Source: Escherichia coli
Lineage (GTDB): Bacteria; Pseudomonadota; Gammaproteobacteria; Enterobacterales; Enterobacteriaceae
DNA: 64,000 bases
Strand: one strand, 5' to 3'
NCBI RefSeq assembly: GCF_050920415.1
Contig: NZ_CP169309.1
A program made the translations under genes and the position numbers. Each line of letters opens with the position of its first letter. Within the stretch, counting starts at the first letter, position 1. Below the pieces are notes generated by a model. The model was given only the letters and a program-made list of their open reading frames with translations. It was not told the origin of the DNA and searched no databases. This document shows, piece after piece, positions 26,933-28,270 of the stretch.

Positions 26933-27085
26933 ATGGATACTATCGAGCTTGGCAACAACGAATCTCTGGTATGCGCCGTGTTCCCCAACCAGGACGGCAC
27001 GTTCACCGCGATGACGTATACCAAAAGCAAAACGTTTAAAACCGAAACTGGCGCACGTCGCTGGTTAGCAAGAAACACTGACTGA
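26933..27085 (+). CDS. ydfA: YdfA-like protein (DUF1391)
   Basis: MDTIELGNNESLVCAVFPNQDGTFTAMTYTKSKTFKTETGARRWL, near-identical in pattern to Qin YdfA. Confidence 0.8.
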   Translation: MDTIELGNNESLVCAVFPNQDGTFTAMTYTKSKTFKTETGARRWLARNTD

Positions 27086-27096
27086 TGAGGCTGACG

Positions 27097-27735
27097 ATGG
27101 AATTTAAAGATTTACCAATATCAATACAGGAAATGGCCGCTGATGTGATTCGCTCGCAACTGGCGCGGAACCCAATGATATTAGTAGATAAAGTGTTCAT
27201 CAGAAATTTATCAAATCATGTCCGCAATTCTTTTACCGGACTGTATTCAGATTCGTTCACAAACAATCATTGTGTAGAAAATAAAGCAAAGCCCATTGCA
27301 GAAACGATAACGCAAAACATCAATACGAAACCAACGGAAGAAGAAATTGATCAGTTTGCTCATGATGCTGGTTTAAAAAACAAGAAAGAAAAATCGCCAT
27401 ATGCGGGAAACATGTTTGTTTATGACAACCTTATCCGAATTCGTGGCGAAATTCCGACTGAATACCTGGCAAACGTTCATCAGGCATTACTTAAAAATCT
27501 GGAAACAGAGTTATTTGATGGCAACACCAACGGCTCCTTCAGTGTGTCAGCGCTTGCGAAAGAATGGGATACAGAGAATAGCTGGAATGTTGCCACATGG
27601 TTATTCAGCAACAAAGCTGCTGCCCTGGAAGCTGCGGCGTGTATTTGCGACCTGCTAAGGACAGACCGCAAATACAACCTGGATGTGTATAGCTATATTT
27701 ATGCTGAACACTATCCGCTATGGATTACCTGGTAA
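27097..27735 (+). CDS. Hypothetical protein, 212 aa (or 216 aa from ATG 27085), unknown function
   Basis: GAGG SD before ATG 27097; alternative ATG 27085 overlaps ydfA stop; occupies the ydfB/ydfC position. Confidence 0.55.
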   Translation: MEFKDLPISIQEMAADVIRSQLARNPMILVDKVFIRNLSNHVRNSFTGLYSDSFTNNHCVENKAKPIAETITQNINTKPTEEEIDQFAHDAGLKNKKEKSPYAGNMFVYDNLIRIRGEIPTEYLANVHQALLKNLETELFDGNTNGSFSVSALAKEWDTENSWNVATWLFSNKAAALEAAACICDLLRTDRKYNLDVYSYIYAEHYPLWITW

Positions 27736-27945
27736 TTACAAAGCTATACCAGCAGGGCCACGGCGACCAGCGCCACGATTGTAATCAATGATGCCATTAT
27801 AAAGCGCATTATTTAATTTATCGTCGAATGCCGATTCTGTGAGCCCTAGCTCTGAATGAGTTTTTAATAACCCTGATTGCCTGAGTTGATTAACCAGGCA
27901 TTCAATCTGTTTTTCAATAAGCGGATGTATTGGCTTGTTTGGCAT
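27736..27945 (-). CDS. Hypothetical small protein, 69 aa, convergent with the 212-aa gene
   Basis: Strong GGAGG SD 6 nt before ATG (MPNKPIHPLIEKQ..). Confidence 0.4.
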   Translation of the reverse strand: MPNKPIHPLIEKQIECLVNQLRQSGLLKTHSELGLTESAFDDKLNNALYNGIIDYNRGAGRRGPAGIAL

Positions 27946-28270
27946 TTTATCCTCCATTGAGGTTCTGGGTTAAAAATGGAGACCAACACGCTGTCACGTG
28001 TGGTCGTGCGCCGGACACGGATAAGAATCCGGCACAGACAGTTTACTGAAAGGATATATCCCTGAAAAGTCAGGGCATAACGCGAAAGCGCACGGCGAGG
28101 TTTATGGTTCATAGATAGCCTGTCGTTAAATTTTCGTCGAACGTGCGCTTCCGGTTGTGGCACTCCGCGAAATGGCGCGGCGGTAAGTATGGCGGGGTTT
28201 TCCTTACCCCCACTGGTGACACCGGGTTGTCAGGTTGACCATACGCCTGAGTGACAACCCCGCTGCAACA

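Follow-up and report, generated by a model that had tools for sequence, protein, structure and literature searches.

A convergent gene pair in the variable slot of dicB-type prophage operons of Escherichia coli, with relatives in Salmonella

What are two small convergent genes doing inside a prophage operon that otherwise follows the dicBF operon of the Qin prophage of K-12, and do they belong together? The question is raised by a 64,000-nucleotide (nt) stretch of Escherichia coli DNA (contig NZ_CP169309.1), called the window in what follows, to which all coordinates refer unless another locus is named. Between ydfA (26933..27085, plus strand) and a DicF-like RNA, it carries an open reading frame (ORF) of 212 amino acids (aa) on the plus strand, here ORF-A (27097..27735), and one of 69 aa on the minus strand, ORF-B (27736..27945). 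The original prediction, made from the letters of the window, had noticed a 212-216-aa ORF and an opposite-strand 69-aa ORF at this place; both are there, both are intact, and their stop codons abut (27733-27735 and 27736-27738). ORF-A and ORF-B are real protein-coding genes, under purifying selection in their own frames only, and together they form a mobile accessory cassette inserted between ydfA and the conserved leader of dicF.

Coding status, distribution and database identity

An ORF-A start overlapping the ydfA stop had been proposed. The ATG at 27085 does share one base with the ydfA TGA (27083-27085), and a protein begun there would have 216 aa; a second ATG at 27097, with GAGG (27087-27090) six bases upstream, gives 212 aa. 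The latter is the likelier product, since all database homologues and the PHROG profile begin at this MEFKDLP. The near-perfect GGAGG Shine-Dalgarno (SD) sequence that had been ascribed to the 69-aa ORF lies five bases upstream of the ORF-B ATG at 27945 (plus-strand CCTCC, 27951-27955). Initiation at another in-frame ATG, at 27957, would extend ORF-B to 73 aa; because this codon sits within the hairpin that holds the SD sequence and is out of frame in the Salmonella locus L083, 69 aa is the likely length.

The ratio of nonsynonymous to synonymous substitution (dN/dS) was computed pairwise by the Nei-Gojobori method from 79 related IMG/VR loci. It was 0.25 for ORF-B and 0.35 for the whole of ORF-A, with 0.19 in the C-terminal domain (C-domain), 0.53 in the N-terminal module (N-module) and 0.65 in the linker between them. 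For each region, four of the five other frames gave 0.96-1.8, and the antisense frame that shares third codon positions gave 0.32-0.45, as expected there.

That these are decaying or non-functional ORFs of a defective prophage is very improbable. In its favour, the cassette is found in no isolated phage, and both in the closest genome (L001 3371-3886; DNA 98.9% identical) and in STEC308 (L002 3253-3768) the Prokaryotic Genome Annotation Pipeline (PGAP) tags ORF-A as a partial pseudogene, 'missing N-terminus'. The full 212-aa ORF is intact in both genomes, however, and the label most likely reflects a swapped N-terminal module; the O157:H7 protein is annotated as a normal coding sequence, WP_000394548.1. 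Decay is also contradicted by the in-frame selection and by the intact copies present in some 600 genomes as well as in a diverged clade from Salmonella. A frameshift does recur in one allele. The O157-type allele of ORF-B, the common one in Shiga toxin-producing E. coli (STEC), has a run of seven A residues just after the start codon (codons 4-6; L025 about 4830-4850), and loss of one of them (A7 to A6) disrupts the frame in 7 of 74 draft-derived IMG/VR loci and in only about 4 of 600 complete-genome records. We have treated the A6 allele as a rare slippage site or a sequencing error, and ORF-B is intact in nearly all complete genomes.

Among 5,426 complete E. coli genomes, the C-domain was found in 599 (750 places) and ORF-B in 596 (743 places), so that the cassette is carried by about 11% of them, often in several copies; the carriers include O157:H7, O145, O111, O103 and O26. 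Comparison with relatives thus revealed undisrupted ORFs in some 600 complete genomes. In 50,697 records of isolated phages, neither ORF-B nor the C-domain was found, the N-module being the only part of the cassette represented there.

Neither protein had been thought recognisable, and this is borne out for two of the databases. At E <= 0.001 neither ORF-A nor ORF-B had a match in NCBIfam or Pfam, and a Pfam search with 20 relatives of the N-module or C-domain gave nothing except HTH_3 in one Salmonella relative. In the PHROG catalogue, by contrast, both are known: ORF-A aligns end to end with phrog_2151 (E 1.8e-100; profile positions 1-212 of 212 correspond to residues 5-216 in the 216-aa reading), and ORF-B matches phrog_4274 (E 2.3e-42; positions 1-69 of 69). 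PHROG 2151 and PHROG 4274 are families without assigned function, whose members appear in hundreds of genomes as 'hypothetical protein' or, for the ORF-A family in some sources, as 'Ybl81'. The 132 homologues of ORF-A all come from Escherichia or Salmonella, with identities of 65-96% for the 120 listed. Remote-homology and structure searches yielded no homologue of known function: profile searches of the PDB with alignments of ORF-A and ORF-B gave E >= 0.19, and PADLOC-DB 2.0 gave nothing at E <= 0.001 (best 0.012, for ORF-A; no match for ORF-B). Literature searches for 'Ybl81' or the RefSeq accessions found no papers. The pair is therefore not new as sequence, and the operon backbone, the protein families and accessory cassettes in the early-left region are all of kinds already known.

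A linked pair in a mosaic slot

When 1.84 billion representative proteins were searched exhaustively with a profile, the C-domain turned up in E. coli and Salmonella only, the Salmonella clade being small (31-40% identity), and a second, word-indexed search with an alignment of the diverged C-domains added only further Salmonella members. We examined ten Salmonella loci (L083-L092), which between them encode six different proteins. In all of them the relative directly follows cox, as the first gene there, in a prophage of the integrase-repressor-Cox type; there is no DicF at these loci, and both the N-terminal domain and the prophage switch region differ from those of E. coli. Every one of the relatives is followed by a convergent gene of 64-69 aa that overlaps its 3' end by 11-53 nt, and these convergent genes are homologues of ORF-B (phrog_4274, E 1.5e-20 to 5.4e-09). 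Since the C-domain and ORF-B are found tail to tail despite 31-56% identity, a new N-domain and a type of prophage other than the lambdoid prophages of E. coli, they constitute an old linked pair. Full-length ORF-B is also present in 75 of the 89 IMG/VR loci of type A0.

The Salmonella loci bear on the possibility that the two genes are self-regulators of the prophage. The C-domain would be an oligomerisation or sensor domain, similar in role to CII or an antirepressor, acting on the lysis-lysogeny decision or on the expression of DicF and dicB, while the amount of read-through into these two would be adjusted by ORF-B or by the transcript antisense to the operon. The first position after cox, held by the Salmonella relatives, is that of cII in coliphage 186. 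One of these relatives, P0172 (L083-L085 5001-5861), has an XRE-type helix-turn-helix (HTH) inserted between its N-terminal domain and the C-domain, with matches that include a 'CII-like regulator' PHROG (2.6e-08); its sister proteins in the same genomic position have no HTH. The modelled fold of the C-domain resembles the C-terminal domain of ArgR and ACT regulatory domains, and the direction of ORF-B opposes the operon upstream of DicF and dicB. We nevertheless consider self-regulation unlikely. No DNA-binding domain is present in E. coli ORF-A or in most of the Salmonella relatives. Many dicB operons, that of K-12 Qin among them, work without the cassette. Moreover, the same alleles of ORF-A and ORF-B stand beside repressors of at least seven types (26-98% identity to the dicA-like protein) and beside several dicB alleles; unlike immunity-specific regulators, they combine freely with unrelated repressor/operator types. 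The cassette is therefore autonomous and not bound to one immunity specificity.

The slot itself, bordered on the left by ydfA, proved to be a mosaic. The 159 loci that encode an N-module protein show five types of C-terminus and, facing them, at least six small ORFs (61-104 aa) unrelated to one another; these convergent ORFs reuse one of two versions of the leader of ORF-B, with its SD hairpin and start region (examples are L003 3001-3619 and the IMG/VR loci L105-L174). The common N-module protein of 124 aa usually has no convergent ORF, and the hairpins H2 and H3 of the leader are degenerate there; the C-terminal type A3 is found with two convergent ORFs (73 and 91 aa), one dubious ORF of 48 aa, or none. 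The pair is absent from PPompW, from loci of the 124-aa type and from K-12 Qin, which has no homologue of either gene. Both ydfB and ydfC are absent from the window, and ORF-A and ORF-B had accordingly been seen as their replacement. This did not survive the comparison, since STEC308 and genomes like it carry ydfB and, at the ydfC position, a gene of 68 aa between ydfA and an intact ORF-A/ORF-B pair. The contents of the slot are additive mosaic modules rather than alleles of one site.

The mosaic is also what speaks for two independent accessory genes that are neighbours by chance, an account of the locus that we rate hardly less likely than the one put forward below. ORF-A would be an early host-takeover or anti-defence gene, expressed on derepression, and ORF-B a gene for lysogenic conversion or superinfection exclusion, a moron with its own promoter, the two never interacting and co-occurring only because they abut and offer no place to recombine. 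Five C-terminal types beside at least six unrelated convergent ORFs, the varied partners of A3, the few loci with an intact ORF-A and no ORF-B, and an antisense leader that serves as a shared socket for any cargo would all fit. Against it, the pair was kept after divergence to 31-56% identity and after a move to another prophage type with a different N-domain, and ORF-B has been lost at only about 1% of some 750 places, where more separation would be expected in a recombinogenic slot.

To the right of ORF-B lies an untranslated stretch of about 330 nt (27946-28279), made up of the ORF-B leader (27946..28035, minus strand) and a conserved element without assigned strand (28036..28279) that forms the right border of the slot. 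Blocks of this stretch are near-identical between the dicB-type prophages of E. coli and the int-C-Cox prophages of Salmonella, whereas the adjoining ORF-B protein is only 39-56% identical across the same loci. The element is also found in K-12 Qin after ydfC (L093 3560-3880) and in Salmonella L083 (about 6050-6400), and is thus present in loci that have no DicF. It has no Rfam match; the untranslated stretch contains three copies of GTGCGC, one of them at 28006, and a long-range inverted repeat (AAGCGCAC / GTGCGCTT). When 76 copies were analysed with RNAalifold, both strands folded equally well, and the counts of G.U versus A.C pairs did not discriminate between them. In the variant loci that lack ORF-B, a 211-aa ORF with Cys-rich motifs (L012 4799-5434, minus strand) is inserted in the element, between the GTGCGCCGGACAC motif and dicB.

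The papers that we searched describe neither the tail-to-tail pairing across prophage types of E. coli and Salmonella, nor the shared N-module, nor an antisense leader shared by unrelated ORFs, nor an untranslated element better conserved than the neighbouring coding sequence.

Protein anatomy and the antisense leader

An alignment of 21 homologues divides ORF-A into a multi-allelic N-part of about 55 residues, an indel-prone polar linker and a strongly conserved C-part of about 115 residues. The N-module (27097..27270, plus strand; about 55-58 aa, MEFKDLP...NVRxAFxGLY) has two predicted helices. It also matches phrog_1363, 6937 and 9419 and is present in Stx and PPompW phages. In the search of 1.84 billion proteins, about 45 clusters at 50% identity had the N-module alone in common, their C-termini being unrelated to that of ORF-A and to one another; in the members scanned against PHROGs and Pfam, no known function was revealed. 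The linker (27271..27390, plus strand) is of low complexity and low model confidence. Taken as a whole, the predicted protein is soluble, acidic and modular and has no hydrophobic stretch.

The model of full-length ORF-A was poor, with a predicted local distance difference test (pLDDT) score of 56, falling below 50 for residues 49-102. A better one was obtained with AlphaFold from a fusion of the C-domain, a Gly-Ser linker and ORF-B, using 16 paired sequences; here the blocks of the C-domain mostly reached a pLDDT of 75-88 and the helices of ORF-B 64-89. The C-domain (27391..27735, plus strand) is modelled as an alpha/beta fold with the topology beta-beta-alpha-beta-beta-alpha-beta. Foldseek matched it confidently only to its own family, with weak matches to Prp and STAS. 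Those to ArgR-C, SUI1 and ACT were also weak, and the likeness to the ArgR C-terminal oligomerisation domain, to SUI1/eIF1/YciH and to ACT is one of fold only. A significant sequence match or strong structural match together with the functional motifs, as expected of a member of SUI1/eIF1/YciH, ArgR_C or ACT, was not found. The residues invariant across the E. coli and Salmonella clades are mostly hydrophobic and include an FDGxxNGxF loop. No candidate catalytic dyad is kept across both clades, the His and Cys of the E. coli clade not being conserved, and no nuclease, kinase or other toxin fold was found for ORF-A. We infer that the C-domain is a binding or oligomerisation domain rather than an enzyme.

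ORF-B is a protein of 7.6 kDa with two predicted helices, a conserved SGLLK junction and a conserved C-terminal tail, RRxPAGxxL; it is not hydrophobic and has no DNA-binding domain. Its leader is built of three hairpins, H1 (28006-28035), H2 (27981-28005) and H3 (from about 27951 to 27981), recognised by folding and comparison. In H3 an anti-SD sequence (CUCCAU, as in the window, or CUCCU) would pair with the SD sequence just before the start codon. Single-sequence folds of the leader had z-scores of -2.2 to -4.1. RNAalifold recovered H1 and H3, with one compensatory pair and with G.U pairs that only the minus strand allows; next to the strand-neutral folding of the untranslated element, H1 beside ORF-B is the only hairpin with such minus-strand-specific pairs. 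The sequence of H2 differs between the two versions while its fold is kept. Its inner part occurs in two alleles, CACGTGACAGCGTG and CACGCTGTCACGTG (window 27981-28005 versus L095, L099 and L103), each the exact reverse complement of the other, a small inversion that preserves the hairpin.

Just upstream of H1 we read from the sequence a candidate ORF-B promoter (28040..28068, minus strand), composed of TTTTCA (28068-28063), a 17-nt spacer and TAAACT (28045-28040); its -35 and -10 elements are weak and score below the threshold of our scan. A TGnTATA-like element lies at the same distance from H1 in the Salmonella loci. As no terminator is predicted either between the two genes or beyond them, transcription of the operon has to continue, in antisense, across ORF-B and its leader, and any ORF-B transcript would likewise extend antisense into ORF-A.

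Such an arrangement recalls a toxin-antidote or abortive-infection pair. ORF-A would be a growth-arresting effector and ORF-B the antidote of the lysogen, and upon infection or induction ORF-B would be shut off by antisense transcription, freeing ORF-A. The linkage is tight, one partner is very small and the two are mutually antisense; the leader of ORF-B sequesters its SD sequence as do the mRNAs of tightly controlled toxin systems; and the operon already holds toxic products, DicB, DicF and YdfD (PMC5069750). The proteins themselves make this distinctly unlikely. They match neither Pfam nor NCBIfam nor, at the threshold used, PADLOC. ORF-A offers neither a toxin fold nor conserved catalytic residues, and it is intact at loci from which ORF-B has been deleted. 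Type II toxin-antitoxin systems are co-directional, autoregulated operons with a DNA-binding antitoxin and a toxin of a known superfamily, whereas ORF-A and ORF-B are convergent, ORF-B is neither hydrophobic nor equipped with a DNA-binding domain, and no toxin-like fold was found.

The operon and a possible role for the pair

The operon of the window mirrors that of Qin, as the original prediction had held. A dicC/cro-like regulator of 75 aa (26018..26245, minus strand; an ORF call whose homologue in L001 is annotated 'Cro/CI family transcriptional regulator') is divergent from a dicA-like HTH repressor of 135 aa (26322..26729, plus strand; 62% identity to K-12 DicA), which by analogy would control the operon containing ORF-A. 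A promoter-like site, TTGACC-18-TAAATT (26827..26856, plus strand; 9 of 12 consensus matches), precedes ydfA and is a candidate equivalent of PdicB, though in a consensus scan such sites were no commoner in the region than in shuffled sequences, so that the match is no evidence of function. ydfA encodes a DUF1391 protein of 50 aa with 88% identity to K-12 YdfA (phrog_751; also DUF1391 in relatives). Beyond the slot follow the DicF-like small RNA (28280..28329, plus strand; Rfam RF00039, E 8.5e-08), a dicB homologue of 62 aa (28509..28697, plus strand; 53% identity to K-12 DicB, annotated dicB in relatives), a ydfD (DUF1482) homologue (28694..28885, plus strand; 65% identity to K-12 YdfD) and an 818-aa ORF annotated 'exonuclease' in relatives (28976..31432, plus strand). 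The window thus shares with Qin the DicA-like gene facing a dicC-like one, ydfA, the long conserved untranslated region, the DicF-like RNA, dicB and ydfD. It differs in having the 212-aa gene and the antisense 69-aa gene in the slot, where Qin has ydfB and ydfC, and in a DicF score of 44.1 bits, just below the Rfam gathering score of 48; the O157 copy of the cassette is accompanied by a 75-bit DicF.

Several other RNAs were seen nearby. The sequence between DicF and dicB (28341-28486, plus strand) matches part of the small RNA family STnc100 but, with 36.6 bits, stays under the gathering score of 47; a full copy (121 bits) lies at 13697-13888 (minus strand). Matches to isrK and to the C4 antisense RNA with its a1/b1 targets lie at 32870-33067 (plus strand), a few kb 3' of the exonuclease gene; the same RNA pair is found in one Salmonella prophage that carries the C-domain/ORF-B pair (L089 6486-6761). 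The window further contains a sok antitoxin RNA, which implies a module of the hok/sok type, three tRNA genes and an naRNA4 match (20672-20847, minus strand; 15296-15540, minus strand; 51421-51496, minus strand).

The original prediction had regarded the operon as expressed in the lysogen. The dicBF operon is, on the contrary, a PL-like early operon, repressed by DicA and DicC and silent under standard conditions, whose transcript passes a long untranslated region before it reaches DicF (PMC5069750). Because ORF-A belongs to this repressed operon by homology, it should be made only on derepression and not in the lysogen, and by the same analogy only ORF-B, on the opposite strand, could plausibly be expressed in a lysogen.

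The reading that we put forward, tentatively, is that ORF-A and ORF-B are a cognate binding pair with mutually exclusive convergent expression. ORF-B would have a promoter of its own within the conserved untranslated element, from which it is transcribed against the operon, and ORF-A would be made only once repression by the DicA-like protein is lifted. As the two transcription units converge without a terminator between them, the repressed prophage would make ORF-B, and derepression would bring a change to ORF-A. ORF-B, small and helical, may bind the C-domain, modulating or neutralising it and guarding against leaky synthesis of ORF-A. From its position among early genes of the kil, DicB and Gam type, ORF-A is probably not a catalyst; it would bind a component of the host or of a competing phage, acting by binding as its neighbours DicB and DicF do. 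A host- or phage-directed accessory role had been suggested for the two ORFs beforehand and is a reasonable guess from their position.

Several observations weigh against a cognate pair. The fused AlphaFold model, with its 16 paired sequences, gives no interface score for a contact between ORF-A and ORF-B. The tight linkage could simply reflect the lack of a recombination site between abutting genes. ORF-B has been lost in about 7 of 750 places (about 1%) and is thus not strictly required beside ORF-A; in the 'WIDWFKG' variant (L012, L076, L082 and L098), from which ORF-B is deleted, ORF-A is intact with its last few residues altered. Other N-module proteins are accompanied by several different convergent ORFs or by none, so that cognate pairing is no general rule of the slot. 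The candidate promoter of ORF-B is a weak consensus match, and the leader that sequesters the SD sequence could equally well restrict translation of ORF-B to special conditions.

The proposed pair can be set beside several known systems. With effector-immunity pairs, polymorphic toxins and type II toxin-antitoxin systems it shares a conserved N-terminus, a variable C-terminus and a small linked partner, the pair being kept across lineages; co-variation of the partners holds for A0/B0, Salmonella included, and fails for A3. It differs in its convergent orientation and in having no trafficking domain that we could find; neither protein resembles a toxin, an antitoxin or a defence protein already known, the slot as a whole does not follow a rule of pairing, and ORF-A survives the loss of ORF-B. 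Phage morons, as Hendrix and colleagues reportedly defined them, are independently transcribed accessory genes inserted between conserved phage genes. The cassette resembles them in being present or absent between otherwise collinear prophages and in its base composition, the guanine-plus-cytosine content of ORF-A and ORF-B (41-42%) lying below that of the immediate flanks, ydfA and the untranslated element (50-53%). ORF-B, on the opposite strand, also has a candidate promoter and leader of its own. Unlike morons, the cassette has no terminator that we could find, ORF-A belongs to the operon instead of forming a unit by itself, the genes stay paired, and the cargo plugs into conserved sockets, a protein module on one side and an antisense leader on the other. 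Face-to-face promoters are familiar from the switch regions of temperate phages, such as pR and pL of coliphage 186 with the CII-activated pE. Here too, a leftward transcription unit lies opposite the early lytic operon, shortly after the switch region, and the Salmonella relatives come directly after cox. The antisense unit here, however, encodes variable small proteins and not a repressor or integrase.

A bolder view, and a rather unlikely one, takes the slot as a two-socket cassette exchanger, with the N-module as the socket on one strand, the antisense promoter and SD-hairpin leader as that on the other, and exchangeable cargo between them. The C-domain and ORF-B would then be an undescribed conflict module, a derepression effector and its lysogen partner switched by convergent transcription, that serves the prophages of STEC and Salmonella in superinfection exclusion, abortive infection or takeover of the host. 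Explanations that we have not listed retain a small share of the probability.

DicF and DicB are known to affect cell division, phage receptor function and virulence regulation in enterohaemorrhagic E. coli, and the presence of the cassette in the DicF/DicB operon of O157:H7 and other STEC makes it a good case for experiments. If the pair should turn out to be two ordinary, unlinked hypothetical genes, little would be lost, as both are already catalogued. The slot gives a defined set of small proteins for such work, and its shared N-module and shared antisense leader may account for the exchange of accessory genes among prophages of this class. A protein made on derepression, together with a partner encoded antisense to it, could alter the effect of the prophage on its host or its competition with other phages.

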